DNA of 64,000 nt from Psammoneis japonica (taxonomy: Eukaryota): NCBI GenBank assembly GCA_008632985.1, contig QPGO01000089.1, positions 62,001 to 126,000 on the forward strand, written 5' to 3'. A program made the position numbers and the translations under genes. This document shows, in pieces, positions 1 to 59,637 of this stretch (the first letter of the stretch is position 1; every line of letters starts with the position of its first letter). A model generated the notes under the pieces. That model was not told where the DNA came from. It did no database searches and saw only the letters and a program-made list of their open reading frames with translations.

Positions 1-1760
1 CTGACCTCGCAGCAAGTTGCCAGCACGCACCAGCTCGCATTCCTTCCAAGGGTCGTCAAGGTCATTGCATCCTGTCATGCAAAAACGGGAGCAGCGTTGG
101 TGACAATTCTTCGCCGCACCTGCCCACAAGGCAGTCTCCGCTCTTTGCATCTCCATTGATTGGGATTGTGGTTGGAATTGCATGAAGGTGACGGATCTCG
201 TCGCCTCGTCGCACATGACATTTGAAGCCACCCAGCTCCATTGCGTTGAGCAAAGGCTGAAGCATGGTTTTCAAAACCTTGTGGTGCTCACAAAGACTTT
301 GCCCCTTTTCCGACTTGCGTGCATTGGACTGCTGTTTTGCTGCGGAAGAAGACATTTTTTCAAGGTCGGGAGTGCATCCAAGAACTCTCCACTTGGCTTT
401 GTCGTGCCACTGTTTGAAGGCAACATGCGCGGAGGTCACTGTCACGGGTTCTCCGCAAGAAGATCCCATCGAAGCTGTCTGTCCCGTCTTGTCTGCACAA
501 ACTGTCAAACATTCCAAGAACTGTTTTAGTGGATCCTTGACTCTAGCCGAATGCGTGCTCCTGCACCACTCTCGGCCAAGACGCATTTGTCATCCAAGCC
601 CTTGGCAACGCACATGCCAAAAGGATTGTGTGTGTCCGCAAGATTGCTTTTGTCAGCCCACGTGCAAGTGTCAAGCATGTGTGATTCCCGCACCTCTTGG
701 AAGTTCCATCTTGGAACCATTGCAGTTTTCTCTCCCGTTCGCCGCTTGGAGTTTCCAGGTTGACCGGTGTCATCTCTCGTTCAGGTCCGGGGAACGATTT
801 GGAAAGAGTTTCCATCAGTGCATTGCGACGAGGCATTTTGGTCCCGAGCTTGAATGTGATGCCGCAATGTCTTTCGACAAATCCCACAATGTCGTCGCAC
901 AGGTGGAGCGGCGCTCTGCAGTCATCTGTCAGCTTGCTCAACTCCACACAGGCCCCGTTTGGGTTGCTCAATGACGACAAGCTGGCAAAGGCTGCCTCGG
1001 CGGGGTGTTGGCAGATGTTGCCCAATTGGCTGTCATCCAACAGAGAGGAAATGTTCCCTTGGGACGCTTGCGTGTCATCCGCTGCATTGCTGTCTGGAAC
1101 ATCAATGGTGACGTCCGGTGGCGCGGTGAAAGAGTTTGCTTCTGTGTCGCTGCTTTCGTCTGAAAGCATCTCCAGTGACATGAAGTGACTGTCGTCCGGG
1201 CCACAAATGGAGGAGAGAGGGGATGTGTTGTCTTCAAATGCAGGTGACCATGGAGCGTCAGAAGGTGGTTCGGACGAACGGGTGGAACCAGCCATGCGGG
1301 CATTGGAAATGGAGGCCCCTCGTCTCGATCATCTCAATCCATGTGTGGAGGTGTCGTTGGATGACGAGGAAGAATCGAGTCCCGAGAAGCCATTGAATGC
1401 AATTTGCATTCCCAGAGTTGCTCCGCCTTCCAACCACTTTGACACAAGCATCGGGCAACAAGTTGGGTCCCGTGCACCTTGTGACGCCAAGTTGGACATT
1501 CGCGAGCGACAGAGAGACATTGTGGATTGCGATTTAAGTGACCGAGCATGCGCTGGAAGGAGCGATGGCAACAGGGACAGGTGGTTGCTTCTTTGCCCTT
1601 GTTTTTGGACTGAGGAAGTTCCATTTTGGTGTTTTGGTGGAAAGAAACAGCAAAGGATCGGCGAGAACATTGTGTCAATGGTTGCGGCTGAGGTTTGGTC
1701 GTGTGGACGGTGTGTGTTGTGAGGGTTGGCGGGAAACAAGACACGAAATTGGCGCGAAAA
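1..1760 (-). mobile_element. Degenerate Plavaka-like (CMC-related) transposase pseudogene, running off the window start
   Basis: Minus-strand fragments: an N-terminal Zn-finger-like CPCCHRSFQRMLGHLNRNPQC, then 'VCADKTG...EPVTVT...KWRVLGCTPDLE...HHKVLKTMLQPL...GDAKSGDCLVGRC'. This resembles the Plavaka pattern YxDKT...EP...WRxLGY.P...YH...GD..SGD.L.GRY with Tyr replaced by Cys/His. Several frameshifts. Confidence 0.6.
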
Positions 1761-1993
1761 TGGTGATCATTGATTTTTTTGCATTGATGAATGCTTTTGC
1801 AGTTGCCTGTCAAAAGAATGCGTTGGGACAATTGAACACTTTCGTGTTGTGTGACAAATGAGAATGCAAAAATTGCCAACGGAAAGGGAAGAGCAAGTTA
1901 GAACACAGTCTTTGGAACATTTTGTGATCACCACTCACTGTCAATTCTTTAACTTGCGCGCGCAGTGAAAAGGCACGCGTTGTTCCACGTCCG

Positions 1994-4883
1994 TCAGTTC
2001 CACCATTGGGACGGTGTCAACGCATCAAAAACAACACCCGTTGTGCCACAACAGCCGTGCGAGTGACGTGCACCATGGCTTCCATTGTCCAGAACGATTC
2101 GTTGCTGGCACGCTGGCCTGATGACTGCTGGAGGAAACTGGCTGAGGTGGAGAGCATGGGACAAGAAGCAAAAGAGGAAAAGATGGAGGCGGACTGCAGC
2201 GCAGCTAAAAAAGAGCCAGGTCGATGGTTGGGCACCGGCAGGAAGGAACCATCCAACACCCCTGCTTGCAAAGAGACTGCATGGACATGTGCAGTTTAAT
2301 TGGCTCGCACAGCAAAGTCGCGCGGTGACTTGGGCGGAGAGCCCGCAGATGTCGAAGAAATTTGGGCGATTCATTTGATGATCATGGAAAGAGATGAACG
2401 GACCATCAAGGAGAAATGGAAGGAACTGTGGGAAACCAAATGCAACATCATGAGCCGGGTGTGTGAGAACATGCATGAATGGACCAGGGAAGTGAGGGAA
2501 TGCATGCACGCTGCACAGGCCATGTTCTCCATTCACGACAAGGACGAGCATTCAGGTTTGATCATCGAGCGAGCGAGGAATGCTCACAAAACATGCCAGC
2601 ATTGGAACTTGCTGGCAACACACCCGGAGAGGCAGGGAGAACAGCACGCAGCAAGCGGTTGGTTAAACGACCCAAGCGATGAGCTGTTTGATGAGTTTGC
2701 AGCTGGATCAAGGGAGGGCGAGCTTCGTCTGGCGATTGACAAGCAAGATGTTGATTCATCAAGCAGGGAATCAACCCTCAGCTTGCCCACATGTGGAATG
2801 GACCAAAGCGGGAATTGCGGACCGCTCGCATTGGACAACGGTTTGGGAGATGTGTGCAAACTGGTTGTGGACCAAAAGGGCGTCGTGTTTGATGCAAGGA
2901 AGCTAGCGCATTTGTTTGAGCGACAAGTGGAGCGAGACGCACCTTGCAGGTTGTGGCGGTGTGACGAATTGGAGTTCTTTGAATTGACACCTGGGAAGGT
3001 TGACAGTTGGATCTTGGAAAAAATCGAGAAAATGGGCTTGGGTGTGGGGTCCTTTGGCCATTGTGACAATGAAGAGAACAGGAGACTACGGAGACAACAT
3101 CTAAAATGAAAAAGGAAACGATTCGTCGCAATCACGTCGAGCGTTTCGTTGGGTGTGTCAGTGAGGCAACCAGCGCGTTTGATCGCATGACTGATTGCTC
3201 ATGTGAGGGGAGGCAGCGATTTTGTCATTGTCCATTTAGAGGAGGATGCGATGGAAGAATTGGATTGGAGATCGTTTTTGGCACCGAGTTTCTGTTGGAG
3301 TGCGCATGGAGCATGGATGCAAACTTCTGACCTGCAGTGATCAATGTTCATGTGTGATTCTGCACAATTGAAAGTTTCAAATGCAATGATCTGGTTGCAC
3401 ATCAAAATTGTCATTGACATTTAATTGTGCAATTCAAATTGAACAATTGGTCACTTGAACTGAAACAAATGTAACCAAACATGTGGTTTTCAAAGTCAAA
3501 TGATAAAAATCACTGATTGTGATGATTTGGGAAAGATTTGACAGTTGACACACACAAGGATGGGGAAGGCATCACCATAAAGTGTCAGGAACAGGTTTGA
3601 AATTTTGCAAAGACAATTTTCCTCGGAAGAGCTGTTGCACTGCATGATTGCAGACAGGAGGAACTGACAGCGACACAATGAGTCGAGGACGATGGGAAGG
3701 AGGAAGAAAGCGGCTAAGACGGATGCTGCAGGGGCAGAGGGAGCGCCCCACAGCCCGAGGCTTGTGGCGGCATTGCAGCGGACGGGGGCTGCGGCGGATC
3801 ACAAGTCACTGAAGAGAGAGGTGGAAGAGGTGGCACGGAGAGAGCTGTTCCCAAAGGCGAAATTCCTCATGAAGGCGGACATGGCGAGTGGTGGCAAGGT
3901 GTCACGGCCAATGCGCAAAAACACAGCAGATGGCAAGTTCGGCAAGTGCAAATGGGCGGGATCATGGGAGGACTGGGCTAAAAAAGCGTGCTCAATGCGA
4001 TCAACGCGAAAAGAAACACCGTGTGTCAGACGACAATGAGGAGTGCGATGAGTGGCAAGTGAGGAGGAATGGAGCATTTCCGAAGCGAGAACAGAAAGTG
4101 GTGCCACTGACAACTTGCTCGTTTTTCTGCAGTCATCACAACAGAAAAACAAGCAGAGGAAATCCAAGAAAAAAAAAGAAAGAAGCAAGGAAGCAGAGAT
4201 CCGTAAAAAAGCGGAGACAGGACAAAGCTGACATTGAGGAAGAGTTCATTGCGACTTGGGAGGATGGGACAGTGGACACAATTGTGATGGAGAAGCGAAA
4301 GGACAGAGAGGCGCGCGCATGGCTCTACAACAACGTCCTAAAATTTGCGAAGAGCACTGCGATGTGGAGGAGGATGGCAGAGTCCGGAAGCACCAAGGCC
4401 ACAGATCTGGCCACTGCAAGCGACAAGGCGCTGGCCCTGTTGATGATGGAAAACTGCTGGAAGGTTTGGGAGTGCAAGAAGATGCAGGAGTTAGATGAGG
4501 AAGGGAGCGAAGAGGAAAAACCGGCTCCATTGCACACGGACCCGTTGCGACAGCGTGACTCTTGGAAGGATGAAAGAACAAAGCGCTTCAACGATTTGCC
4601 AAAGGAGGCAAAGGAAGACAGGGCAAGAGAGCACGGTGTGCATTTTGACACATGGCACACATGCAAAAAGAAAAAGGAGACCGAAGAAAAGGGAAAAAAG
4701 GCGAGAACCACTCAAGAGCCAGCGAAAATGGAGACGAGAACGCAGGCAACATTGGAACTTTCTAGTGATGACGAGGAGGACAAAGAAAAAATGGAGACAC
4801 CAGGTGGCAGAGAAGATGAGGAGGAAGATGAAGCCAGCCAGGAAGACAGTGACGGAAGTGGAGGAAATGAGAATCCAGTGTGA
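1994..4883 (+). mobile_element. Degenerate accessory ORFs of the same DNA-transposon relic
   Basis: Broken ORFs 2300-3109, 3692-4039 and 3888-4883. The last contains 'ASDKALALLMMENCWKVW', similar to the SDEAFALL..EN..W motif I associate with TE accessory proteins, plus an acidic tail. Same TpA-depleted composition as 1-1760; the block ends at ~5520. Confidence 0.45.
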
Positions 4884-5878
4884 GCAAATTGGAGGTGCAG
4901 GACGACCAGGACTGCAGCATTGACTTGGCATTGATTGAGCATTGATTGACAACAGATGCCAAAAAGCCACAGCGATGCGTCTTGGTTGATTGAGAAGAGC
5001 TGACTGAATTCATTGTGTTCGCCCCTTTAAATTGCAAAACTGTCACATGATGTGAAAATTGACAATGATGTTGATTGTCAGCAGCTGTGGTGAATGAAGG
5101 CACATGCCAAATGGGAAAAGAGGGGGGCATTTGCACAGTTGAGGTTTGCTCCCATGGACAAAAAGATGTCTCCACAGTTAAAAAAAATTGGCTGTCACAG
5201 ATTGAATTTTTTTGCCAGCTGCGCAACCAATGAGGTTTGAAACTGCCAAAAATTTTGTCTGTCAAAGAGACAAAAATCACAATGAAAAGACAAAGCCTGA
5301 TCACTGTGTTGCGCCCTCTGATGTTTCCACAGCTGTTTTGTGCGGAACTGCGGTCAATGGTCAGAGCAACAAACAGAATGACACCTCTTCAATCTGTTGA
5401 GTTGCGTTGGGCTGTTGGTGGAGAGGCATTCATGGCCCTCTTGCGTGCGCGGCTGGTTGCGTCGGTGTGAGGCTTGTTGGTGGTCGCGTTTCTTGACTGA
5501 AACACGTCATTTTGGCACATTGAGTCGAATTAGTCCATCTCGCAACTTTCTCGCGCCTATGTTGTATGACACCGGTAGCTTCTTCAGCCTGCGCGCTTTT
5601 CACGAGCCGGCCGGCTCGCAATGCTTTGTCGTCTGCCCGCCGCAAACAAACCAACAGCATGCACAGCGCACTGCAGCATACCGGTAACAACAGCAACAGC
5701 AGATGCCGGTAGATGCTAGATGCAACCAACGAACTCTTCTGGCGAGAGCAAAGAACAACGCCGAGCTTGTAAAGCAAAACAAAGATCTAAATAGTAGTAG
5801 AGGTCGTTCTCTTTTGAGGCGAAATCAAATGGCATGCTGATGCTTTCATAAGTGCAAAGAACCTCTAGACACACAAAG

Positions 5879-38159: not shown

Positions 38160-38939
38160 TACTGAAAAGAGAAGCGATTGTTGGATTTCTTCAGTTTCTG
38201 ATCGTATCGGTATTTTGTGAGACGAGACTAAGCAGGTTGCATGATAAGGTCTTTGTCATGGCCAAAGCTAGCGCGATTTGTTTTTGTTGCAGTTATCAAC
38301 GCGCATCCGAGCGTTGGAGTTGTGCCAACCGAAATCGCCAACGCGTTGCGAAAATACAAAAAGCTATGGCATTGAATACTTGACTTTACGTTAACGCATC
38401 CGTTGGAAAAACGAATACCGATAGTACATTTTTTTGAAATTTTGAATAAACAATCAGAACTGTTTATATATTTTTTCCGAATGACGTGAACCTCGTTATT
38501 CTCATGTGCACGAAACAGAATAAACGCCGAACCCCAAGCGAATGAATCGCAACCAAACTGTGAACACTTACTGTACTGGTGCCAAGCAACACATCACGAC
38601 GTGTGCACTCATTGACTGGGAATTTGGCAAAGCAAGCGTGCAATCTTGCAGCTTTCCTGCTGTCATCAGGATGAGCAACAAGGTTTTGCACCCAAGAACA
38701 AACTTTTCTCCTTTTTCACAGACACCAAGCAGCTGCTCTTGACCTTCACTTTGCACAACAGGTGCAGCATCATCAGAGAAAAATGTCCTTCCAATCTCTG
38801 AAGCAAGCGGGCGGCAACCGCACATTTCAAAAAAGCCCGCGAGAACACTGACTCAAAAATCTGCCAACCTCAACCATCACAAACGAGGTAATGCCATTCT
38901 GCGTTGGGCTTGTGAAAGAATAGCCCTCGTGGATTAAAG

Positions 38940-44100: not shown

Positions 44101-46300
44101 CATGGGAATGACATGCTTGTTTGATCTTGCCTTTCAAGGCATCCATTGGTTGGCTCCACACAGCCACCATCTTGTCCATGATGTCTTTGGGTGCAAAGGA
44201 CAAAAGTTCTTCTTCACCTGAATGGATCATAAAAATTGCTTCAAGTCCCTCACACTTGGAATTCCAGCCTTGTGATGCAGTCTCAGCATGTGCTCAGCAT
44301 TCGCTGCCTCCCTCTTGGAGCAGCCTGTGGCACTCTGATCCATGGCCAGAACTGTGGTTCCTGATGCACCCCTGTGCTCCTTCTTCTTCTTCTTCTTCTT
44401 CTTCAACAGCATGCTCACATGAGACTCTTTCTCTTGAAGCTCATTGACACAGCACAAAAACTTCTCATTGGGTGTGAAAGCACACAGCCTGATGTCACCT
44501 TTGACACCACAAAACCTGCTTGCCAGTCTTTGCATCCAGCAGACAGAACTCATCTGAAGTGTGGTTGTTGCATGTGATGCAGCACTTTTTTCTTCACATC
44601 CTTCAAACTCAGAACATTTGCTGTTGCATTCTCTGACCCAAGCTTTGTGTCTCCCCATGATGGCGTGGCACAGTCTTTGTCCAGTGTGCCCACTCCTGTG
44701 TTTGTGGGCAGATGAGCATTGTTCTTTGCCAGTTGCACAGTGTGCACAAACCTGCCATGCTGAGGGTCAATCATTGTTGAGGATGAGCTCATCCATCTTG
44801 ATGTCCATGTTGGCTTGCATCATGCTTGTTTCTGGTTGCTCACTTGTGAGTTGCAGCCTGTGCCATGCAGCACATCTGCTTCTGGCAGAACAGCTTGGTC
44901 TGTTGGATCTTGTGGTGTTGATGCTTGCGCTGTTGCCATCCACAAGTCTGTGCATGACTGTGTCCCCTGATGTCCAGCTTCTGTCCTGTGTCCTGAAACC
45001 AGTTGTTTTGCACTGCATTGCCCTTGTGCAAGCAGCTTGGGGACTTGTGGCCTTTTCTGCCACAACAGTGGTGCGCACTGTGGCATCACTTTGGTTGCTG
45101 TTCTGGGCATGGCTCTGGTCTTTGCTGTTGTCATTGTCACCATCCTCCTTCTTCTTGCCCTTTTCATTGCTGTTTCTTGTCCTGATGCAGCTGTCCTTTG
45201 GATGGCCCAGCAATGTGTTTGCAGCTGTCTCCATGGTCTTTGGGCAGGAGGCATCCTTGTCTGGACTGCAGTCCCTCACAAAGCTGTTCTTGAGGTCCTT
45301 GCAACAATGATTGTTGCTGTGTGATCTGAGAACAGGTGTGTCATCCACTTCTTGCATGCCCCATCCTTTGGCTGTCTCTGAGTGTCATGATCTGCTTCTT
45401 GACATTGTTTTGTGTTGGCGATGAACCCATCCAACATTGTCTTTCCCTGGACTTTGCTCACAGCATCCTGCTGGTTCTTGAACCTTGACAAACAGTCATC
45501 TCCTGTTCTTTTTTCTCTTGCTGCCTCACATCCGTCAGGAGGTTCTTCAGTGACTTGCTTGGTCAGCATGTGGAATGGATGACAACCTCTCATTGAGTCA
45601 AATGTCAGGGTCTGAATTGGCTTTGACAGCTCAATCAGATTGTCTCTGAGTGCAAGACAGGCTGGATCATGTTGCACTTGTTGCCTCATTTGCCTGGAGC
45701 AACAGTCATCCCATGTTGTGGAGAATGCAACAGCCTCGCTCTCTTTGAACTGCACAATTTTCTTGTGGCTGTCATGCAATTCCTCCATGCACCTCCACTC
45801 CAGCTCCTCGTTTTTGCACTCACACTGTTTTGGCAAGCTTTGGCAATTGGCATTTCCTGGACCTGGTGCTGTCTTTTGGGACATCTTCAGAGCAGGCTTC
45901 TTGGAGTTAAAGTCCTTGCATTTTGTGTCCTCTGGCAATCTTGCCAGATGGACTCCTTGCTCATTTTCCTTCTGCACATGTCAAATGATCCATTCAACAT
46001 TGAAGGATGGAAGTTCAGCTCAGACTGAGAGCACTTCTTGTTGTTGGGACTGTCTGACCTGTGACTCTTGTCTCAGCCATCTCTGTCTTGGCTGCCAACT
46101 TGGCCAGATTGCTTGCCACTCCCTCTGCCGCTCATGGCACAGGAGATCTCAGCTCATCTTTGGAGTGAATGTTAAACCAGCAAGTTGGTGTTGCCAAAAA
46201 GGAATCCTGCTGGGCTTCCTGTGCTGCTTGTTGTTGCACTTGCCTCAGTTTCTGCATTGGCTTTGGGTTGCCTGTGTCGCCAATGCAAAACCTCCAAACT
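41200..46300 (-). mobile_element. Old, heavily mutated Ty1/copia retrotransposon (gag-pol remnants)
   Basis: RNase H 'KWHVNTSFAVNLDFKSHTGG...SAQSSTEAEPAGVDD'. RT 'STDVPNAFVQT...LHVQVIRAACGM...LLWHKQFCKDLEKIGLKFNLCDPCIAN...FHVGNLLSSH...HNCLGMMLDFS'. gag-like remnants at 45276-45977. LTRs not identified. Confidence 0.8.
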
Positions 46301-46309
46301 GACAACACA

Positions 46310-46420
46310 ACAGGCACCTGTTGATGCTGCACAAACCAACAAATGGCTCACTTGAAAGAACAAAAAAAAAAACAGGCACCTGTTGATGCTGCGCAAACCA
46401 ACAAATGGCTCACTTGAAAG
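46310..46420. repeat. Tandem ~62-bp duplication
   Basis: acaggcacctgttgatgctgc(a/g)caaaccaacaaatggctcacttgaaaga occurs twice, separated by an A-run. Confidence 0.8.
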
Positions 46421-47835
46421 AGCAAAAACAAAACAAAAAAAAAGGCAGGGGATCAATGACAGTGGCACACTCTTGTCAAAGATCACCATCATTCTTTGCT
46501 GTGCCAGGATTCAAAATTTCTTTTTTTTCAACATTTCCAGGTCCCACATCTGGGTGTCCCAACAATTTCACCCAGTCAACTTTTTCTCTCCTCTCTCAGC
46601 AAAGTCTGATGCAGTGTCAGCAGGCAACCACAAATTCACTTGGTCCATTGTGTGCTGTGACTTGTGCCGCAATTGTTTTTTTTGTCATTTCTGTGAGACT
46701 TTCTCACAAATTTCATTTGATCAATTTCTGCTTTCTTTGTCCCAACTCAAGTTGACAGGGTGGGAGTTGTGTGCACACCCCGCAGGTGAGGAGCACTGGA
46801 TGCAGCCATGGGGAATTCTCCTGAGCACCTTGTGACTCCCTTTCTCAGTTCAAGAATGGCAGCAGACAGAGAGGAAAAGTGCCAGATCCCTTTTCCAGCA
46901 ATTTTGAAGACTTTGCTGGTGATGAAAAAGAGCAAGAGGCCATTTCTTCTCACTGATCACAGCACAGTGCAGGGAGAATGTGGAGCTGCTGCTGGCAATG
47001 ACTCTCTTTGCAAACAATGAGCAGAAGGTGTGATGTTGCAAGGAAAAAGACATTTGCGCTTGTGTTGCTCTCAAATGCAGTCACAAACAACTGAAATGTT
47101 TTTGAAAATGGGGGGGGGTGCAATTTTGAATCTGCGCAATTTTTTTCAGGTCAACATAAAACACAAAACAGGGAGGCCAACTTGCAACAATGCAAAGCAG
47201 TGCATGCCACAGCATGTGTGGGCAAATGAACAACACAAAAGCAATGAGAAAACACAGCAATTGCAGCTCAGAGACAGACCAGTCTCTGAGTGAGCAGACA
47301 CCAATGATGACAAGGCATGCAGAGACATTGTCAAGGGCAAGAGACCACATCAAAGAAAAAGCAATGCAAACATCATGCTTGAATTTGATGCAAAGCAATT
47401 GGAGGAAACAGCCATGCTGTGTGAAGACAAAATTTGCTGCAAGTGTCACTGGGAGATTGTCGTCAAGCAAGATGGAAAACTGACTCCCACATTTTGCTTT
47501 TTCTCACAAGAGTGCAAGGGTGCAAGAAGACAAAGCAGCAACTCTCTGCTCTGAGGCCAACAGATGTTGCAAGCAAGCTTGAGAGCATCACCAAGAACAA
47601 GGGGTTCACAGAAAAAGAAGTTGTCACAAAGAAGGGAAAGTGTGCAAGAAACTTGAGCACTTTGCAGCAAGCAACTGGAACCCAGCAGAAGAAGACACAG
47701 GTGCAGGAGATGATGCAAAATGCCAAGAAAAAGCAAAGGATGGTTGATGAGAGCCAACAAGTTCTTCTGCAAGATGTTTGCAGAATGCAAACAAGATGTT
47801 GCTGCTGCAAGTGAATGGCTGCTCCTCTGCTGACA

Positions 47836-48111
47836 TGACAGGATTTGAACAGGATTTAGGTGCACGAGAAGCATCGCGCGCTGTTTGGTTTGCCGTGCAC
47901 AGTTTTGTGTGCTTTAGTTCCGCGCGTTCACGCACGATGTAGTTTGCTTTCGAGCCACAAGGCTCACAAGAATGATGACAGCAGCCCGATTGTACCGACT
48001 CACACGTCTTTCGGCTCCTGCAACGGTCTCTGAGCGGAGACTCATCTGCCATTTAGACAGCAGCAAGGAGCCATTGTTTGAATTTTTGCCAATTGCCTTC
48101 AATTTCTGTCA
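47836..48111 (+). repeat. 5' LTR
   Basis: Colinear with 54671-54946; TG...CA ends with a 6-bp terminal inverted repeat. Confidence 0.95.
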
Positions 48112-49052
48112 GATTGACAGTCTTGCTCATTGTCAACCCATTGAGCAACCGCCATCGTCGTCGTTGATTTACCAACGACGCTGTCTCAATTCTGCGTGGA
48201 CCTCCGTGTGTGTTCTACACACATCGGCAAGTCTGCGCGCATTCAACACCAGGGCATCGGCAGGAAGTTAACGTCACCGTCAAGTCTCCTCACCGCTGGA
48301 TGTCTGGATTGATTGTGCTGCCTTTGATCGCTGAAGACTTACATTCAACGGTCACATCCAAGTCTGTCCTTGATCAACATCCCTTGACACACCTGTTCCT
48401 TGGTCAACGGTCAAGAACCCCACATGTTCAAGGATCTCAGTCGCTGAAGACACATGTGTGCATGTGCATGTCTTCACGGCCAAGAACCTTTATCCACTCT
48501 TCGGACTGCGGTTTTGCCACCACTCTACAAGCACACCGAGTCCATTGCACCTGATCCACCCCGGACTGCTGGTGCTCTGCAGTTCCACCAGGTCCACGAG
48601 GACGACTGTGAGAGCAGGTGGCCGTGATTACAGCCTACGTTGGGGCGAGGGTGCTTTCCCGCGTTTGTTCGTTCGTCCACAGCGCCTGACGCCTACGTCA
48701 ACTGGCCAGCCTGATCGGGAAATCCAACCGACATAAAACAAGAACGGTTCGGGGGTCTTGTCCACCTCTAGTCAGCTCACCTGCAGGGGTTTACAACCCG
48801 CTACTCCGCTAGCAAGCAACCCAAAGCGCCACTGGCTGCGGGTTCGGACGTGCCGGCACAACTCTACGGACCGGATGGGAAGTTTAGCACTCAACAACGA
48901 ACGGGACAACAAAGCCCGGCGACTTCTGATTTTAAGACAGTTCAAGATTTCAAGTCAAGTCTGTTTCAAGTCAAGTCTATTCTCACCCAAGTTTCGAGTC
49001 TACCTTCGCTTCCCAACCAGAATTGATTGTCCTGACACCACTTTTGTCTACC

Positions 49053-52000
49053 ATGGTTCTCACTCGTCAGCAACAAACCGATGGTTTCGAGCACGTGGTT
49101 GGAACCGTGCTTGCCCAAGGTGCTGGGAGTCCTCTTCGTTTGGCTTTGGCCCAAGACGGCACGGACTCGCATCAGGAACTATTCACGTTCACACCGTCCC
49201 AAATCGACTCGCTTGAGTGCGACAACGGCACTAATGTAATCCCTTTGCCCCGTGGTTATAAGAACATGTTAGCAGCACTGGTCAGTCTGCACATTGTCAA
49301 AGCACACAAAGGTCTTGACGTTGCCAACGACTCCTCTTTGTTCACGCATGACGAGTTCCTTGCCTGCCGCCTCAGCCCCGACTGCATGTCTTCTGTGTCC
49401 ATCGGCAGCTCACCCCTTGCACCTCCACATGTCACCAACCCGACCAAGGCACGCGACCCGGTGCGGGACTTCAAGCGAGGCATCAAGCGTGATCCCACTG
49501 CTTTCACGGCTCTCAAATCCAACAAGCAGTGGCACACTTGGCACACCTCACTTGTGGCACAAGCCCGTGCCCAAGACGTCGAGTGCATTCTAGACTCGTC
49601 GTACAAACCGACCAGCCCCGAAGACAAACTGCTCTTTGCTGAACAGCAAAAGTGCATGTTCGCCGTCTTCGAACGCATCCTTCTCACCGACAAGGGCAAG
49701 GCTCTCATTCGCGAAAATGTGGGGTCTTCTGATGCACAGACCGTCTGCCGCTCCTTGTCTGAGTGCGCGCTTGCCTCCACCCGCGCATCTGTCGAGTCCT
49801 CCACCCTGCTCACGCACCTCACCACCGCGCGTCTTGGTGATGGCACTTGGAAAGGTCCGACCCACGGGTTCATCCTTCATTGGCAAGATCAGTTGCGCAA
49901 GCACGAGGCACTCATCCCGGCCAGTGACCACTTCTCTGAAGGACAGAAGCGCGTCATGCTCGAGAATGCCGTGCACCCTGTCGAGGAACTCCGTGCTGTC
50001 AAGAACCAAGCTGATCAGCATCGTACGCAGAGTGGCGAGAGCCTCACATGCGATCAATGCTGTGGCTTGCTCCTCTCCGTGGCAGCTCAGCACGACAGCA
50101 TGTTTCAACCCAAGACGACACCTCGAGCTCCCCGACGCGCCACACACGCACACAACGTCCACTCCGAGGAACCGTCCGACGATGTGTTCTACGACATTGA
50201 CAGCGACGTTGACGTCCTTCAAGCCAATGCTGCCCACACCCGCGGTCCCAGCCTCACCGGTGTCCAATGGAGACGTCTCCCTCCTGACCACCAACGGCTC
50301 TGGGATTCGTTGCCCGATTCCTCCAAGGCGATCATCCTTGAGCATTCTCGTCCACCTCCCCGCAACCCGCGAGCCAGTGACTGCCATGAGTCTGTTACGG
50401 CCAACCTTCACGACCAACGCCTTGGGAGTGACGGTGATGTCAACTTGTCCAACACGACTCCTGCTGACTCTGGTGACTCCGCTCCACATGTGGACGCCAC
50501 TTCGGACAATCCCATCCTGGCGCACCTCACCAAGCGCAAGCCACTGCCACCCGGTGATCTGCAACGTCTGTTGTCTCCTAACCAAGCCCCCAATGCCAGT
50601 CGACCGGGGCCATCCGCCGCTTCCTCTACCCCGCCAGCTTCTGCAGATGACATGGAACTTAACGGCCGCACTCACCGCCGCGTTGACAACCACAATGTCA
50701 TTTGCTCTGCCTCTGCTCATCGCTCCACATGCACTGGCGCTCCAGTCGATCGTGGGGCCAACGGCGGCATTGCTGGCGACGACGTTCGCGTCATTGCACG
50801 CACCTCTCGCCAAGTCGACGTTCAGGGCATTGACGATCATCAATTGGTGGACATCCCCATTGTCACCGCTGGTGCCGTCATTGAGACCCAGCGTGGTCCC
50901 GTCATCGCCATCCTCCATCAGTGCGCATGCACGGGAAAGGGCAAGACCATCCATTCCTGCAGCCAGCTCGAATGGCACAAACAGGATGTCAACGATCGCT
51001 CTGTCAAGGTGCCCAACGGCTTGCAACGCATTGCCACTCCTGATGGCTATGTCATCCCCATTGACATCAAGGCTGGCCTGCCTCATGTTGCCATGCGACC
51101 TTGCACTGACGCCGAATGGGACACCCTGCCCCATGTCATCCTCACCGGTGATGACACATGGGACCCTTCCGTCCTCGATCACTCTGTCACTGACGACGAC
51201 CAGTGGCACGACGCAATCTCTGACCCACAGGACGATCCCACTGCCAACCTGTTTGACGAATGCGGCAACTACCGTCATCGTGTCGTTGTCAACGAGACCA
51301 TCATGTCCGCTTCCTTGTCTGCCGATCACGCGTCCGCCCTCGATGATCACCTCATTCCGAACGACGACGTGTTCTACGAGTGTCATCTGCATGCGATTGG
51401 CCCCCAGGGCGATGACGTTCCACCTCCGGAGCGCACTGTACAGCCCAAGGACCCCCCCTTCGAGTCTCTTCGGCCTTGCTTTGGCTTCCTACCCACCGAT
51501 GCGGTCCATCGTACTTTTGACTGCACCACGCAGTGCGCCCGCATGCCCGCCGGTACACACCTTCGCAAGGCCTGCAAATCACCCAACCCCGCCCTTAATG
51601 TGCACCGCCGCAACGAGCCTGTCGCCACTGACACCGTTCATGCCGACACCCCGGCCGTCGACTCTGGTTGCACCAGCGCCCAACTGTTTGTTGGCACCGA
51701 GTCTACCGTCACTGACGTCTACGGCACTAAGACGGACAAAGAGTTTGTCAACACACTCGAGGATCAGATCCGTGAACGTGGTGCCCCATCCAAACTCATT
51801 AGCGACCGTGCTCAAGTTGAGATCAGCAACAAAGTGCTCGGGATCCTGCGCGCCCTCTTCATCTCTAGCTGGCAAAGTGAGCCTCACCAGCAACACCAAA
51901 ACTTTGCCGAGTGTCGACACCAGACCGTGAAGCGCATGGCGAACACTGTCATGGATCGTTTTGGTTCGCCCGCCCATGCATGGCTGCTGGCGCTCATGTG

Positions 52001-54723
52001 CGTGTGCTTCACACTCAACCATGCAGCGTCCCCACGTCTCCACTGGTGCATGCCCCTCGAGACTCTCACTGGCTCCACCCCGGACATCAGCCCATTGCTT
52101 CGCTTTCACTGGTGGGAACCCGTGCACTTCCACCTCGATGACTCCGATTGGCCGTCTGAATCCCGTGAGTTGCGTGGACGCTTCGTTGGCATTGCTGAGC
52201 ACGTCGGCCACCAGATGACCTTCAAGATTCTATCTGACGAGACTCAGAAGATCCTCTGCCGGTCCAACGTCCGCTCCGCCACCCCCGATCCTGCCGTTCG
52301 AAACCTGCGTCTTGATCCTCCTGATGGGGAGCCACCTGAACCCATCATCAAATCTCGCCATGACGACAACCCCGTCGACTCTCCTGATGGGGAGATCAGG
52401 ACACCCAAGATGCCAGTTTTTGATCCGCAAGACATCATTGGACGTACCTTCCTCATGCAGCCACAAGAGGATGGACAACGCCACAGAGCTCGCATCGTCA
52501 AGGCCGTCGAAGACCACGAATGGAAAGTGAACGGCAATCCCGAGCTCACTGAGTTCGTCTGCTCTGTCAACAATGACGAATACGAGGAAGTCCTTGCCTG
52601 CAATGACATCATGAATCACATTGAGCAAGAAGACGAAGACACCACTGTTTGGAAATTTTGACGCATCGTGTCACACGAAGGACCTCTGAAGCCTCACGAC
52701 CCAACCTGGAAAGGCTCCAGCTACAACATCATGCTTGAATGGGAAAGTGGGGAGATCACGTCCGAGCCTCTTGCCATCATCGCCAAGGACGACCCCGTCA
52801 CCTGTGCCATCTATGCACGAGAGAACGGACTCCTCGACACGGATGGCTGGAAGCGGTTCCGCACCATCGCGAGGCGCCAAAAGAAGCTGTTTCGCATGGC
52901 CAACCAAGCCAAGCTTCGCTCCTTCCGCACTGCACCTCGCCACAAGCATGGATGCGAAGTTCCCCGGAACTACAAACACGCCATGTCACTAGACAAACGC
53001 AACGGCAACCGCAAGTGGGGAGACGCAACTAATCTCGAGATGGACCAACTCGACGAATACAAAGTCTTCCATGACTGCGGGCCCTTCAAGTCTTCCACTC
53101 CTCCTGCGGGACACAAGAAGATCCGAGTGCACCTGGTGCACGACGTGAAACACGACGGTCGCCACAAGGCATGACTCGTAGCCGACGGGCACCTCACGGA
53201 CGTACCCATCGACAGTGTCCACTCCGGAGCAGTCTCCCTCCGTGGCCTTCGGCTGATGATTTTCCTGGCCGAACTCAACGAGTTGGAGACATGGGCCACC
53301 GACATTGGCAATGCCCACCTTGAAGCCACCACCAAGGAGAAGCTGCACATTGCAGCTGGACCCAAAATTTTGCAAACTCGAAGGACACATCCTTGTCATC
53401 CACAAGGCACTGCATGGACTGCGCAGCTCCGGTCTCCGCTGGCACGAGCGCTTCGCCGACTGCCTGCGAGCTGAAGGCTTCTTCCCCTGCCACGCCGAAC
53501 CCGACATTTGGATGCGCAGGAACGGCGACCACTGTGAATGCATTGCCGTTTATGTGGATGACCTCGCCATTGCCATGAAGGACCCTCAATCTTTTGTCGA
53601 CACTCTCACGGAAAAGCACAAGTTCAAGCTCAAGGGTGCGGGACCCATTGAGTTCCATCTGGGTTGCGACTTTTCCCGGGAACCCGACGGAACCTTGTGC
53701 TTGTCTCCGCGCAAGTACATCAAGCGCATGGTCGACAGCTGTGCCCGACTGTTTGGGGAGAAACCTGCCACCAACGCCCTGTCACCTCTAGAGAAGGGTG
53801 ACCACCCCGAACTGGACACTTCCGAACTGCTGGGACCCGATGGCATTCACAAGTTCCAGTCTCTTGTTGGTTCACTCCAATGGGCAGTGTCCCTTGGTCG
53901 AATTGACATTGCCACGGCCGTCATGTCACTCTCTAGCTTCCGAGCTGCGCCCCGTCAAGGCCACTTGGATCGTGCCAAACGCGTCTGTGGGCACCTCTCC
54001 AAGATGCAACACGGTGCTCTCCGCGTTCGCACGGAAGAGCCCGACTGTTCGGATCTCCCTGCTCCGGCCTGTGAATGGATGCATTCCGTGCATGGTGAGG
54101 CAGAAGAGATGATCCCGAAGGATGCTCCACCGCCCCTTGGCAAGTTCGTCACTGCCACCCACTACGTCGATGCAAACTTGCACCATTGCATGCTCACCGG
54201 ACGCTCTGTCATGGGAATGCTCCACTTCCTCAACAAATTCCTGGCTGATTGGTTCTCTAAGAAACAAGCCACCGTAGAGACTGCGACCTGCGGGTCTGAA
54301 TTTGTTGCCGCAAGGACTTGTGTTGAGCAGATTGTCGACCTGCGCATCACCCTGCACTGCCTTGGCGTCCCGATCCGTAACGTCAGTCACATGTTCAGTG
54401 ACAACAAGTCGGTTGTAGACAGTGCCACCATCCCGCACTCCAAGTTACACAAGCGACACACCGCACTGTCGTTCCACCGTGTGCGTGAGGCAATTGCCTC
54501 TGGTTGCCTTGAGTTCCACTTCATCGAAGGCTCCCGCAACCCTGCTGACATTCTCAGCAAGCATTGGGGTTGCTCCCAAATCTGGGACCTTCTCCGCCCC
54601 CTCATGTTCTGGAACTTCATTCCATCCGAAGTCGAATCTGTTTCTGTGGCTCCTCAAGCAAACTGGGGAGTGACAGGATTTGAACAGGATTTAGGTGCGC
54701 GCAAAGTATCGCGCGCTGTTTAG
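49053..54723 (+). pseudogene. Copia gag-pol polyprotein pseudogene
   Basis: Protease-like VDRGANGG; integrase 'ATDTVHADTPAVD...LISDRAQ...SEPHQQHQNFAE'; RT 'DIGNAHLEA...KALHGLRSSG...YVDDL'; RH 'YVDANL...SDNKSVV...NPADILSK'. TGA stops at 52659 and 53172, both at expected Arg (CGA) positions; +1 frameshift at ~53365. Confidence 0.92.
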
Positions 54724-54946
54724 TTTGCCGTGCACAGTTTTGTGTGCTTTAGTTCCACGCGTTCACGCGCGATGTAGTTTGCTTTCGAGCCACAAGGCTC
54801 ACAAGAATGATGACAGTAGCCCGATTGCACCAACTCACACGTCTTTTGGCTCCTGTGACGGTCTCTGAGCGGAGACTCATCTGCTGTTTAGACAGCAGCA
54901 AGGAGTCATTGTTTGAATTCTTGCCAATTGCCTTCAATTTCTGTCA
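54671..54946 (+). repeat. 3' LTR
   Basis: Preceded by the PPT and followed by the TSD TGACA. Confidence 0.95.
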
Positions 54947-54951
54947 TGACA

Positions 54952-57700
54952 GGAAGATTTGCACAGGAGAACTGCAGCCAACTGTTGAAAGCAAACAGGA
55001 AAAGGGCTTGATGGCTTGGGTGATGAGGGAGACCACATGATGAGCTGTGCCAAGACATGTGAGCTGGAGTCAGTTGTGGCAGTTTTGCAGACAAAAACCC
55101 ACAAGCAGAATTTTTTCATTGTTCAACATGAGATTCCAAGGCAACACTCCACTCCAGAAACCGCATTTTAGACAGCAACCATCAAGTTGAACATTTTGGG
55201 GATGCAAACTTGGTGAGTTTTGCTGCACACTGACTGGGTTGATAAGATCTTTGCTTGCAACCTTGGACATCTGTTGGAAAAATGGGCACTCATGTGTTTT
55301 CAAATCTTGCACCAACTCATGATGAAAGGGGTGGTTTGTGACAAATCTGACTGATTTGTCACAAATGAAATCATGCGCTTGCACTCACACATCTTTTCTT
55401 GGACTTCAGTCCACTCATCAGTCAGGGGGGGGACTCCCAAATTTGCCCCCCTCCCCCCCGATGCCATGCCGTGGCTTCAGCCAATGCTCAGCAGACAACA
55501 CAAACACTCAAAAAGTGTGCTGGTCAGCAACACAACAACTGCTCTTTGGGCACGCACAAGCATTTTGCAAGTGCATGAAGCAAAGTTCTTGCTGGACATT
55601 GTGGCATGTCTCCATTGGAAACATGGGCAGCTTTGACAGACAGCTGCTGTTTCACCTTGAGCTTGCTTGTTCCAAAGACATGTGCAGTCAAGTGCACGCA
55701 GAGAAAAGCACCAACAAGCCTTCAAATTTGCACAGCAATCATGTGTGGATGATGTTCAATGACTGAACTCCAGCAGATTTGGCTTGCAATGAGAGTGAGA
55801 CAATCAACTTGCGTGCTTTTGGCAAAGAGCTGAAGTGGCCACATCAACAAAAGATGATGATGTGTTTTTCAAAACATCAAACAGAGATTTTTGTGAGCTC
55901 CGCGCGGCAACAACAAGAAGTGATTCAGAAACCCACATTGTTCCTGTGGTGTTTGCCAATCCAAATTTTTTGAGAGTGGTGGGGGAAACCAGTGATGTTT
56001 CACTCTCACATTTGTGCGGCTTTTGCAAACCCCAATGCGGCGCATCAGTCCATTTGACACAGCGCAAGCTCCAAACTCCAAGATTTCTTTTCCTCTGCTT
56101 CATGCACCTCACTGCATTGTTGCATCATGTGTCACCCCTCACACACCCACGATGGCAGAAAAAACCACAAACCCTGCCAACGCTGCAGTTGCATCACACC
56201 ATGTCAGTTTGGGATGATCAAGCTCAATCAATTCCATGGTTGCATGTTTGTGAAATTAACAGAGATGGTGCTGACCACCAAAAGCAAATGCTGAGTCAGA
56301 ATTTGACCACAGCAGCACACAAGATGCAGAAAAAGAGCCCAAGAGGCAGGAATTGGAGGCAGTGCAAAAGACAAGCAACAAAACATTAACACAGCAGTGG
56401 CTGTTCAAGACTTCTGAATTGTTCAAAATGGCAGCCTTGGTGCATGCATTGGCGCCATTGTGGGGTCAGTGTTTGAATTCATGGATGGCGTGAAAACAGC
56501 AGGAAAATCAGAGGTGTTGAAAAAGATGTCCAGCTTGGCAAAAAAGCAAGCATGTTTTGCAGGGCACAATGCAATCGGCAAGCTTTTTTGTGGTGGCTTT
56601 TTTGGTGGACATCATGTTGCAAGTTCTGCACAAAGCTGCCCAATGCATGTGATGCACAGCTTGTCATGGAAATGGCAAGTTTGTTTTGGGCAAGAAAAAT
56701 CAGAGTGCATGTGAGCCATCCTCTTTTGCATTGCAAACACATTGGCGCACCTTTCCTCTTGTTCAAAATGCAGTCTGTCTCATTCAATGCCTTTTTTGGA
56801 ATTGCACAAATGTGGATTGTGTGCTGCAATGGATCCTGGCACTCCAGATGAGATTTGTCAAGCCTGGCTGACATCCATGGGGATGACAATGTCTTGGCTG
56901 GCACTTTGTCCATTCTTGCCCTGTGCTGGTGTGCACATTGCTGAGTTTTGTCCTTCACTGAAGACATTGTTTGGAGATGTGCAACCCAAAAGTGTCTTTC
57001 TTTGGTTGCCAACTGTCACGAAATTTAATTCTAGCCTCGCTCTTCACTCTGTTGCCATTCATTTCCAATCACAGTCAGCATCTTCATGCAAGAAATGGAC
57101 AAGCAGTGGTGCAGTGGTTGGCAAGCTGCAGAGAGATTTGATCCACAAACTGCTTTGTGTTTGATTCCAGCACCACTTTGCCCCATGATGCACAAGAGAG
57201 TGAGGGACTGGTTTGTTCCATGAAATTGTTGCAGCAGTTGGCAGGGAAGTCATCAGTGAATCCACAATGTTCACATCAAACAGTTGCTGTCATGCAAGCA
57301 ACATCAGCACCTCCCGCTCCATCACTGGGCAGGTGAAATTCAATGAGTTGGTTGTGTGGAAACAGAATTGCAAGTCATTTGAGCCACTCACAAATGCCAA
57401 TGATTTTCACAGCCAGGAAGAAAATGAGTTGGCAATGATGCATGCAAGCATGTGGCTGGCAGAATCATGAAACTCTCACAAGCCTTGAAAGAGCCCTTCA
57501 TGCAGCAGAAGCAGCCCAAGGAGTTGCAACAAGAATTTGAAGCCATGCTCCACTGTTTTGAGAAACTCCATGTCAAGCAACATCAACAAAATGGCACTGA
57601 GTCACAACAAGAGTTTGATGCAATTGAGTCTGCCGAGGAAGTTTATGACACATGTCCCATGAGGAATTTGATGCCCCACAAAAAACTGTTTAATTCTTCA
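54952..57700. mobile_element. Unclassified degenerate repeat relic, continuing the 46300-47835 sequence that the copia inserted into
   Basis: TpA- and CpG-depleted with no credible ORF. The TSD shows the two flanks were contiguous before the insertion. Confidence 0.45.
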
Positions 57701-57739
57701 CAATTGTTCATGCTCTAGACGCCTGTAAAAGCCAATCCG

Positions 57740-58884
57740 TTTGAGCATTTTTTATGAAAACACTTCACGTGCTAATGTGTGCACACCTTACATTCAAAAT
57801 CGATTGTCGTTTTGTGTGTCACCTGGGGCTGGAACACGTCGTGGAAAAAGAGAACACTGGGATTTGTTGGCCGCCATGGTCACCTTGATTCTTCTTGATC
57901 ATGAAGCCCAATCTGCAGTGCTTGGTGCATGTCTTTCCTTTGGCTTGATCCGCAAGCCTGTCATGAGAGTCGTTGGCTCAATGTGTGGTTTGGACTTTCA
58001 AATGGGAGACAGCAAGCGCAGAATGTTGAGGCTCCATTGGCTGTGTTCAGGGATTTGAACAAATGCATTGGACAAATGGCGCACAAGCACATGTCTGCAC
58101 TCTCAGCTTCTTTCTGCTGGAGTTTGCACCTGAAGGATCTGTGTCAAGTGCATCAGCACTTGTGGCGCCCAAAGCACAGATGCTTGACGTGTCCAAGAGC
58201 ATCAACCTCATCAACGGTTTGCACAGCTCAGTTCAATGTGGCCTCTCTCCTTGTTTCCATGACATGAGAGCTGGGCATCAGCTTGGTTTTGGTGCCTTTT
58301 CTGACCCTCTGGTGGGCTGTGGAGGCTGCCGAGATGGGGTGACAAGAAGTTTGGCAGAGCTTCAGAAATGTTCATGCACGAACCCTCAGGTGAAACTTCT
58401 GGAGCAATTGTTGATGAGCTCGCCACTCTTTTGACATTGGGAAGGCTCAGCACCAAGAACAAGAAGCATGCTGCAGCTGCTTTTGATGCTGCAGTGGTCA
58501 ACGTTGAAATCCAAGGATTTGTGAGACAATGTGGCCACATTGCAAACCTTGCAATTTGGTTGAACACTCCCTCAAAACTCTGGCAATGGCGTGGAACATG
58601 CCTGGGGTGGCAACTGCTTTGTGGCTGGTGGAGCCATCAAGGGTGGCAGAATCTTGGGAGAGTGTGGTCCTTCCGACATGTCTGAGAACAGCAAAGTTGA
58701 TGTTGAAAGAGGGCAGCTCATCCCGACAACTTCTTGGGATCTGATCTGGCCCGGCATTGCACAATGGACCGGCATCACCAATGCTGAAGATTTTGACCAT
58801 GTCTGCCCAAATCGTGGCAATTTTGTTTCCACATTTGCTGCATTTGATTTGTTTGAGAATGCACCTCAAGATTCAATCCCATGA
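57740..58884 (+). pseudogene. Deleted and mutated fragment of a DUF1800-DUF1501 fusion gene
   Basis: 'DLLAAMVTLILLDHEAQSAVL...KPVMRVVGSM', 'IGQMAH', 'APKAQML...INGL', 'IVDELATLLTLGRLS', then the DUF1501 C-terminus 'HAWGGNCFVAGGAIKGGRILGEC...RGQLIPTTSWD..W.GIAQW.G...PNRGNF'. Confidence 0.75.
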
Positions 58885-59637
58885 CCCATCCCCAGAGGCA
58901 ACAGAGAGATGTCTGCACCTGGAGAGCAGCAGCCTGGCAAAAGCCCCTCTCCACCACCCATGATGCACCCCAACGCAAACTTGGAATCATCTGCAGTGCC
59001 CCACATGGTTGTCGCCTTTGCTTCCAGCATGCTGGTCCTGTCAGTCCCAACTGGGATTCAGCCAGTTTGGCGCCTTTCCGCAAGTGCGCATTGGATGCCC
59101 ATTTGTGCATTGGATGCCCATTTGCAGGAGACAAGTTGGTGAGTGACATTAGAATGAGTAACAACAAGAAGAAGCTGCTGCTTCTCAATGGACAGTTCGG
59201 AGATGGAGTGCGCTCAACAGACAAAACCTCACACAATTGAGTTTGTCGAAAGACAACTGCGACGAGACGCGGTCTGCAAGAATTCGCATCAACCGGAGCA
59301 CCCTTTTATCGCACTGTGCTCCCAACAAGGCCACCACTGGCAACCAACACAATGACAAAACAGATCACAAGCTCTACTTGCACAGCACAAAACAAGAGGA
59401 GGCAGTTCCCACCTACATGATGCGAATCGAAAAAGAAGCAGCAGCAAGACCCGCCTGAGCAATGGCAAATTCTATGGCCACCATCGCAATCACTTGCGAA
59501 CGGAATAGAGTAACCCCCCAAAACCCCCGCTCTGCATTATATAATTTAGACCGCTGCTTTATTATGCATGAGTCGCAATGGTGAAGCATGCGCTCGCAGT
59601 GCCGGTACATCCATTGGTCGTCCCTCTCTGTGCCCTG

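Follow-up and report, generated by a model that had tools for sequence, protein, structure and literature searches.

Probable TpA-directed A-to-G hypermutation of a Copia retrotransposon and neighbouring TA-poor blocks in a 64-kb window from Psammoneis japonica

Why should long blocks of DNA be almost free of the dinucleotide TA (5'-TpA-3') when the genes beside them have an ordinary TA content? The question is raised by a stretch of 64,000 nucleotides from Psammoneis japonica (assembly GCA_008632985.1, contig QPGO01000089.1, positions 62,001 to 126,000; hereafter the window, in whose own coordinates all positions are given), which carries four TA-poor blocks, one of them a Ty1/Copia retrotransposon with long terminal repeats (LTRs). 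We suggest that the A of 5'-TA-3', on whichever strand it lies, is probably changed to G by a host process that acts specifically on mobile or foreign DNA. The data directly support the direction of the change, its dinucleotide specificity, its occurrence on both strands, its restriction to the blocks and, in part, its timing after insertion. The initial annotation of the window had proposed such a conversion and had known of no published description of one; a 2026 preprint on the chlorarachniophyte Bigelowiella natans does, however, describe in its main text A-to-G/T-to-C hypermutation that is confined to TpA (Mettrop et al., bioRxiv 10.64898/2026.01.13.699255), and the process in the window is probably a further case of the type of hypermutation just described there.

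Taking the TA density in the genes of the window as the expectation (1528 TA in 35,403 nt), ~1196 TA are expected in blocks A, B and C and the Copia element together and 146 are present. Ratios of observed to expected dinucleotides (o/e) were symmetrised over both strands, and the pooled gene stretches have a TA o/e of 0.63. In 1-kb intervals the gene stretches give TA o/e values of 0.37-0.87, the intervals at 1-5000, 31001-34000, 41001-48000 and 55001-59000 give 0.00-0.14, and those at 48001-55000 give 0.15-0.34. Segmentation delimits four TA-poor segments at 1-5679 (TA o/e 0.084), 30477-34770 (0.059), 41051-48694 (0.061) and 49233-59506 (0.125). The blocks and the parts of them that are referred to below are as follows.

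1..5530: block A, truncated by the window start; TA o/e 0.07, CG o/e 0.72; 25 TA versus 238 expected
30530..34661: block B, between two subtilase paralogs; TA o/e 0.03, CG o/e 0.19; 8 TA versus 171 expected in 30709-34661
41200..47830: left part of element C (block C); TA o/e 0.04, CG o/e 0.16; 15 TA versus 286 expected; contains a TA-free run of 1678 bp
54952..59450: right part of element C; TA- and CpG-poor; 18 TA versus 194 expected
45279..45980, - strand: open reading frame (ORF) in block C read as a gag-like relic; 0 Tyr in 234 residues
47831..47835 (left copy) and 54947-54951 (right copy): probable 5-bp target-site duplication of the Copia element, the same five letters
47836..54946, + strand: Ty1/Copia LTR retrotransposon; TA o/e 0.23, CG o/e 0.88, GC 56%; 80 TA versus 307 expected
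47836..48111, + strand: Copia 5' LTR, 276 bp, TG...CA ends, TA o/e 0.28
48936..52661, + strand: Copia ORF 1, gag to integrase part, 1241 aa; Tyr 0.7%, His 5.0%, Cys 2.5%
53260..54723, + strand: Copia ORF 2, reverse transcriptase (RT)/RNase H part, 487 aa; YVDD intact; Tyr 0.6%
54671..54946, + strand: Copia 3' LTR, 276 bp, TG...CA ends, TA o/e 0.39

The longest TA-free run lies in block C between TA at 44230 and TA at 45908, and at gene density the chance of finding no TA in 1678 nt is ~7e-33; the next TA-free gaps measure 1361, 1282, 1014, 991 and 984 bp. The 1-kb profile and the segmentation bear out the initial annotation in that TA-poor blocks lie beside TA-normal genes, and the flanking TA positions bear it out in that a run of ~1.67 kb (44232-45907) is free of TA. 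The block boundaries are sharp, within ~100-300 bp. Where the old element C ends on the right, the zone 59150-59500 has an intermediate density of 7 TA in 350 bp; either the process extended slightly beyond the element, or a fragment there was mutated less, could account for it.

Among the 16 dinucleotides, TA is depleted in every block (o/e 0.03-0.23 versus 0.63 in genes), CG is additionally depleted in blocks B and C (0.16-0.19) but only mildly low in block A (0.72) and in Copia (0.88), and none else is depleted. The sole class that is clearly raised is TG/CA, with o/e 1.39-1.84 in the blocks versus 1.16 in genes. AA/TT stands at 1.22-1.32 in the three older blocks versus 1.11 in genes, with AA at 1.07-1.32 over all blocks, and AT is only mildly low in the blocks (0.73-0.90). 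A general drive from AT to GC should have lowered AT more strongly, and we rejected GC-biased gene conversion, a drive of this kind, given that AA/TT and AT are without depletion.

The direction of the change can be read from conserved tyrosines. The Tyr codons TAY (Y, pyrimidine) yield by one transition either Cys (TGY) or His (CAY), so that Cys at a Tyr column indicates A-to-G on the coding strand and His indicates A-to-G on the other strand. The Copia polyprotein has 896 relatives at E<=0.001. Among the best 120 of the 896 the closest is only 61% identical, and same-family copies are thus absent from the searched protein database; in these 120 relatives Tyr makes up 2.8-4.8% of the residues, with medians of 3.8% for Tyr, 3.5% for His and 0.9% for Cys, while the Copia ORFs of the window have 0.6-0.7% Tyr, 5.0-5.7% His and 2.5-3.7% Cys. 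The gag-like relic has 0% Tyr, 4.3% His and 5.6% Cys versus homolog medians of 4.2, 2.3 and 1.1%. In both cases the comparison with homolog medians upholds the early impression of Tyr-poor, Cys/His-rich ORFs in the blocks. Tyr is present in at least 70% of 40 full-length Copia homologs at 40 alignment columns, and at these the window element has Cys 17 times, His 11 times, Tyr 6 times, Phe 5 times and Thr once, whereas it retains 618 of 704 (88%) of the conserved columns other than Tyr. A leave-one-out control puts Tyr retention in the 40 relatives at 80-98%, with 85-95% for their other conserved residues. A whole-element tblastn version of the analysis gave 48 Tyr columns, of which 10 are retained and 32 are Cys or His, and in the gag-like relic the 7 majority-Tyr columns hold Cys (4), His (2) and Phe (1) and no Tyr. 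Because the protein is otherwise preserved as well as in its relatives, the loss of TA appears to be a specific hypermutation and not general decay. Both outcomes are seen, Cys 17 versus His 11 at the protein level and a rise of both TG and CA at the DNA level, and the proposed conversion of the A of 5'-TA-3' to G on either strand is thereby supported.

The bases that flank TA are also associated with the outcome. When a C precedes the Tyr codon (TAG on the other strand), the outcome is Cys in 8, Tyr in 4 and His in 0 cases (n=12); where it is G (TAC on the other strand), His is found in 7, Cys in 3 and Tyr in 1 (n=11), and the difference in the His outcome (0/12 versus 7/11) has a Fisher p = 0.0013. 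The trinucleotides that survive, with densities relative to genes, are TAT (1.8% in the old blocks, 7% in Copia), TAC (2.6% and 30%), TAG (10% and 43%) and TAA (19% and 28%). Along the Copia element Cys and His outcomes form no runs that are evident by eye, and the outcome tracks local context. From the Tyr codons and the surviving trinucleotides we infer that 5'-TAY is preferred on the changed strand.

Is TA poverty simply a property of this family of elements? A metagenome scan for Copia relatives gave 79 loci, and 78 of the 79 have an ordinary TA content (o/e 0.35-1.00), on which basis TA poverty is apparently not intrinsic to the element family. Among the loci with at least 8 Tyr columns (n=74) Tyr retention is 59-100% with a median of 83%, and among the 17 non-window loci listed Cys or His occurs at Tyr columns 0-1 times per locus, with the exception of locus L059. 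This environmental contig of 1025 bp, which is Copia-related but different, has a TA o/e of 0.04, a CG o/e of 0.52, a TG/CA o/e of 1.51 and 2 Cys/His at 5 conserved-Tyr columns and is, as judged from its composition, a second, independent instance of the signature. Many of the related loci (L039, L061, L076, L079, L058 and L020 among them) have a CpG o/e of 0.03-0.25 with ordinary TA; thus, CpG decay of the methylation type is common among the hosts of this Copia clade, and TA loss is rare and host-specific.

What, then, are the blocks? The Copia copy is assigned to Ty1/Copia by an RVT_2 match (Pfam, E 1.4e-13), colinearity in tblastn with full-length polyproteins of ~1850 aa (one homolog has 1845 aa), LTRs with TG...CA ends and a probable 5-bp duplication; its reading frame is broken once by a TGA at 52659-52661 and once by a frameshift near 53320-53369, and Pfam recognised neither its gag nor its integrase part. 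The copy is nested within the older TA- and CpG-poor element C, which it splits. The ORF at 45279-45980 in element C is read as a gag-like relic because a full HMMER scan gave it 33 homologs at E<=1e-3, the best at 9.8e-11 with 29% identity; in one of them the matched part is followed by a borderline CCHC knuckle. Among 111 stop-to-stop ORFs of at least 90 aa from the old blocks no Pfam family rose above noise at E<=0.05, and tblastn of 25 Copia polyproteins had the Copia element as its sole match and none elsewhere. The block A ORFs 2300-3106 (+ strand) and 546-1328 (- strand, longer proteins) gave no homolog, an Atlas search with block A 3873-4880 gave no usable match, and a purine/pyrimidine-coded self-comparison of blocks A, B and C showed no LTR or terminal inverted repeat. 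The view of the initial annotation that all blocks derive from transposable elements (TEs) accordingly stands for the Copia element and the gag-like relic at 41-48 kb; blocks A and B gave no family or homolog, and the DNA-transposon relics that it had invoked were identified in none of the blocks.

Contigs of four sequencing runs (X1-X4) from one sample, which is possibly the assembly's own source, were aligned to 41000-60999, where 15,244 contigs of run X1 aligned. Summed contig word depth, which is no copy number, is 68,000-172,000 over the Copia element versus ~160-700 in most flanking bins, and we take this as evidence that the Copia family is very abundant. The flanks in the old element C are also covered by diverged contigs. 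The places at which the window copy differs from the contigs of this sample are for the most part transitions, with transition:transversion counts of 232:15 (X2), 207:14 (X3), 194:17 (X4) and 1234:374 (X1). One contig of run X1 joins 47744 to 55018 and omits 7273 bases, with short alignment sides; this junction may represent an empty site, belonging either to an allele or to a further copy of the old element that lacks Copia. Separately, a short tandem repeat with a unit of ~62 bp lies at 46309-46433 inside the old TA-free element.

If the blocks are singled out, by what are they recognised? The initial annotation held that repeats are targeted. A natural control is provided by two genes that flank block B.

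27242..30430, - strand: subtilase paralog 1, 1041 aa, with Inhibitor_I9, Peptidase_S8, PA and fn3_6
35076..38268, - strand: subtilase paralog 2, 1051 aa, with Inhibitor_I9, Peptidase_S8, PA and fn3_6

The paralogs are 88% identical over 3186 aligned bp and normal in TA content, and their spectrum of differences is ordinary, with 212 transitions and 177 transversions and with differences at 26% of TA sites and 30% of CG sites. Targeting of repeats as such is therefore not supported by this 3.2-kb duplicate: a duplication sensor of the kind that operates in repeat-induced point mutation (RIP) would have struck the paralogs while they were still identical, and duplication itself would not be the trigger. 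Given the untouched paralogs and the single-copy target in B. natans, the trigger seems to be foreignness or silencing state and not repetition.

This tandem pair of subtilase genes may belong to a family of bacterial type that is present in a eukaryote; an Atlas search with the subtilase gave clusters that are either bacterial or without a recorded taxon, which by itself is no sign of transfer. Scans with Rfam and for tRNAs, which could have pointed to the host taxon, had no matches. The genes of the window are long uninterrupted ORFs of 412-1051 aa and mark the host as intron-poor, probably unlike B. natans, whose genes are intron-rich. Several gene regions have repeats of their own. A 619-aa ORF at 17105-18964 (- strand), with no Pfam family, has internal tandem repeats at 17249-17611 and 17855-18467, and the kb containing these repeats has the lowest TA o/e of the gene intervals (0.37); near-identical internal repeats are found at 61744-62047 in an ankyrin/IQ gene (61380-63434), and diverged repeats extend over 9635-10858 across the ORFs 8639-10081 and 10127-11047. 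A single N is present at 17059.

When did the Copia element lose its TA? The two LTRs of an element are identical at the completion of reverse transcription, and those of the window element differ at 17 of 282 aligned places, 16 of the differences being transitions; in purine/pyrimidine coding they are 99.6% alike. Four of the eight TA sites differ as TA versus TG or CA and 5 of 19 CG sites differ, and there are two further CA-versus-TG doublets, the ancestor of which may have been TA or CG. As the LTRs started out identical, the TA sites kept mutating after insertion, at a rate that we roughly estimate from these small counts as ~50 times that of ordinary sites, and part of the TA loss is thus likely to have occurred on integrated DNA. 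Moreover, the older blocks are more TA-depleted than the younger Copia element.

Several observations weigh against the suggestion that chromosomal mobile DNA is the substrate, or limit it. (i) The LTRs were already TA-poor at insertion (o/e 0.28-0.39, with 0.22 in the internal part) and share only four TA. (ii) About 80% of the conserved Tyr had been lost while the CpG o/e of Copia is still 0.88. (iii) Post-insertion divergence at TA and at CG in the LTRs is of the same order. Taken together, these three points argue that most of the TA loss in Copia would predate this insertion or precede integration, and in-situ decay of this copy alone is insufficient; the earlier loss would have occurred in an ancestor copy that still transposed, in a burst, or on pre-integration intermediates. 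(iv) The sharp block edges fit pre-integration editing as well as they fit precise targeting. (v) The restriction to foreign or mobile DNA is read from these edges, from the gene o/e of 0.63 and from the identification of the Copia element and the gag-like relic, but blocks A and B, two of the four, matched no known family. (vi) The best 120 of the 896 relatives in the protein database include no copy of the same family. (vii) The comparison of surviving TAN trinucleotides presumes gene-like ancestral contexts; the Tyr-codon test is free of this presumption but comprises n=34 sites. For the claim that the process acts on chromosomal DNA and not only on retroelement intermediates, the LTR pair thus supports action after integration in part, whereas most of the Copia loss is earlier and the DNA-transposon relics that had been cited in its favor were not found.

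Combining these data, we suggest a model in which a deaminase would act in defence against mobile DNA. In the simplest chemistry, an adenine that follows T and precedes a pyrimidine would be deaminated to hypoxanthine on either strand; hypoxanthine would be replicated as G, and TA would be turned into TG or CA until nearly none remains. The choice of targets by the enzyme and its preference at the +1 position belong to the same inferred part of the model. TAA would become TGA or CAA and TAG would become TGG or CAG, and a new in-frame stop would be impossible. Inactivation would instead come from a large load of missense changes, mostly Tyr replaced by Cys or His but also at ATA, TTA, CTA and GTA codons and at NNT|ANN codon junctions, and TA-rich promoter and polyadenylation signals would likely be lost as well. 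Ordinary CpG decay would be superimposed in the older blocks. Since no new stops arise, many long ORFs are present in several frames on both strands of the blocks; in block A the stop codons on both strands are 27 TAA, 17 TAG and 230 TGA. Because stops are not created, the length of an ORF is no sign of activity in these blocks.

An adenosine deaminase might alternatively edit the RNA and/or the single-stranded cDNA of retroelements before integration, in a logic like that of APOBEC3 but with A-to-I chemistry, in which case chromosomal DNA would not be the main substrate. The TA poverty shared by the LTRs with their four common TA, the loss of ~80% of conserved Tyr with CpG intact, the retroelement nature of both identified elements and the sharp block edges all fit such editing; yet the LTRs, identical at first, now differ at 4/8 TA sites and at 2 CA/TG doublets, depletion in the old blocks goes far beyond that in the young Copia element, and a chromosomal change in an ancestor copy that later transposed yields the same LTR pattern. 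In addition, according to the main text of the preprint (10.64898/2026.01.13.699255), new mutations with this signature appear in B. natans in viral DNA that is integrated and single-copy. We therefore regard pre-integration editing as unlikely, although it deserves more weight than the remaining alternatives. One of these is that TA loss is a by-product of a chromatin mark, i.e. of a base modification at the palindromic TpA, such as N6-methyladenine (6mA), that raises A-to-G change as 5-methylcytosine (5mC) raises C-to-T change at CpG. The palindromic target, the effect on both strands and the restriction to silenced mobile DNA mirror the CpG decay that is present in blocks B and C, and the post-insertion rates at TA and CG in the LTRs are of the same order (4/8 versus 5/19). 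Against this, AT is only mildly low (o/e 0.73-0.90) and 6mA in eukaryotes is located at ApT, we know of no base mark at TpA, and both block A and Copia have lost TA to a far greater extent than CpG. The bursts in only some lines of B. natans, which are described in the preprint's main text (10.64898/2026.01.13.699255), furthermore argue for a regulated activity, and we consider a by-product of this kind decidedly improbable.

Explanations without a mutational process fare less well. One is that the families, by composition or selection, avoid TA, or UA in their RNA, owing to UpA-sensitive RNA decay, target-site avoidance or codon bias; a mild TA/UpA deficit is indeed general, with an o/e of 0.63 in the genes and of 0.35-0.5 in some relatives. 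This scheme has, however, to contend with 78 of 79 related loci with ordinary TA, with the replacement of 28 of 40 conserved Tyr by exactly the two residues that a single transition gives, and with non-coding LTRs that are TA-poor as well, and we give it very little credence. For an artefact of assembly or of base calling at modified bases nothing specific speaks, although the runs that cover the stretch derive from the one sample from which the assembly was possibly made; TA-free intervals, 42247-42534 and 55520-55851 among them, are matched by run X1 contigs with zero differences, the pattern is near-complete and obeys codon and context rules, and the unrelated metagenome contig L059 has the same pattern, so that an artefact is next to incredible. 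We thus favor hypermutation of mobile or foreign DNA by the host, with most of the Copia loss inherited by the present copy or incurred before its integration.

What would follow if such a process operates? As a tentative extension, for which the odds are somewhat below even, a natural DNA adenine-deaminase defence with 5'-TAY specificity, guided to mobile DNA, may be common to Rhizaria and the presumably stramenopile host; it would silence by missense alone, so that copies keep long ORFs and evade pseudogene detection, and the very abundant Copia family would persist or amplify in a nearly TA-free state. If this is true, a nearly TA-free and yet abundant Copia family would suggest that element and mutator are engaged in an arms race. 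In practical terms, dead elements with this signature are GC-enriched and can be mistaken for intact ones, with long ORFs on both strands and in several frames, and as TAA and TAG are deleted and no new stops are possible, they mislead gene callers as well as estimates of TE age. The candidate 5'-TAY motif and the Tyr-to-Cys/His read-out narrow the search for the enzyme, which would be a natural DNA adenine editor.

How does this process compare with known systems? Fungal RIP is similar in that transitions are limited to mobile or repeated DNA, leave a dinucleotide signature and permanently disable elements, but RIP changes C to T, mainly from CpA to TpA, and so enriches TpA, lowers GC, creates stops and senses duplication, whereas the process in the window removes TpA, raises GC, makes no in-frame stops and left a 3.2-kb duplicate untouched. 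We rejected RIP because it predicts enrichment of TpA and depletion of CpA/TpG, the opposite of the observed TA (0.03-0.23) and TG/CA (1.39-1.84), and because any long similar duplicate should be struck, whereas the subtilase paralogs were spared. The decay of methylated CpG likewise has a palindromic dinucleotide as its target and gives TpG/CpA products on either strand, and it is present in blocks B and C; however, it acts on C and cannot remove TA. CpG depletion with an excess of TpG/CpA is clear in B and C (CG 0.16-0.19) and weak in A (0.72) and Copia (0.88), and CpG decay is a second, separate process that offers no explanation of the TA loss. Block A and Copia lost TA with little loss of CpG. 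The early distinction of the signature from both RIP and CpG decay is supported.

Like ADAR and APOBEC3, the process would leave deaminase-made clustered transitions fixed in integrated retroelement copies. ADAR acts on double-stranded RNA, accepts a 5' U or A and favours a 3' G, and APOBEC3 converts C to U on minus-strand cDNA. In the window the 5' base is strictly T and a 3' pyrimidine is favoured, unlike in ADAR editing, and in contrast to APOBEC3 the other base is changed and part of the change is post-integration. Editing of the ADAR type was rejected in that the AA o/e is not lowered (1.07-1.32) and a 3' G is disfavoured, with TAG outlasting TAT and TAC and with 0/12 His outcomes. The tRNA deaminases of the TadA/ADAT2 type have A34 after U33 as their natural target, and TadA of Escherichia coli recognizes UACG and in mRNA changes the Tyr codon TAC into one for Cys. 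This UACG preference matches both 5'-TAY and the Tyr-to-Cys outcome; what sets the tRNA deaminases apart is that a natural activity on chromatin-embedded double-stranded DNA is unproven for them.

A literature search, with most subscription journals outside it, found TpA hypermutation only in the preprint on B. natans and nothing for diatoms; by word search, the text of a diatom Copia paper (PMC2806351) has no mention of hypermutation, point mutation, dinucleotide or tyrosine, and in the searched text of PMC4504042 TA is mentioned only in regard to nucleosomes. According to the main text of the B. natans preprint, which reports TpA-only hypermutation of integrated foreign DNA in mutation accumulation experiments, 302 nuclear single-nucleotide mutations arose de novo, 231 of them within two viral regions integrated in the genome, and 230 of these 231 were A to G or T to C, all at TpA and in only some lines (10.64898/2026.01.13.699255). 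The same text describes clusters depleted in TpA and enriched in CpA and TpG, an enrichment of RT and DDE Pfam families in TpA-depleted coding sequences, and homologs of ADAT2/3 as candidates (10.64898/2026.01.13.699255). The two systems are alike in that only TpA is hit, with TpG or CpA as the product depending on strand, a GC-ward bias, foreign or mobile DNA as the target and normal neighbours. They differ in that the B. natans mutations are seen de novo on insertions of nucleocytoplasmic large DNA viruses (NCLDV) and virophages in which TpA is still plentiful (Rho 0.45), whereas the window presents only an end state, near-saturated (o/e 0.03-0.23) and on LTR retroelements, with CpG decay superimposed and with the LTR-LTR divergence concentrated, in small counts, at TA sites (4/8). 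The TA share of dinucleotides is 4.3% in the genes of the window versus 6.0% for B. natans (10.64898/2026.01.13.699255). The main text of the preprint, without the words context, flanking or trinucleotide, appears to give no flanking preference, whereas for the window 5'-TAY is inferred. TpA-specific A-to-G hypermutation has so far been represented by one preprint and one chlorarachniophyte, and a second, apparently unrelated host would mean that it is not a one-species curiosity; to the B. natans system the window would add LTR retroelements that are mutated nearly to saturation, a motif (5'-TAY) as a candidate, a Tyr-to-Cys/His read-out and ORFs that are left open.

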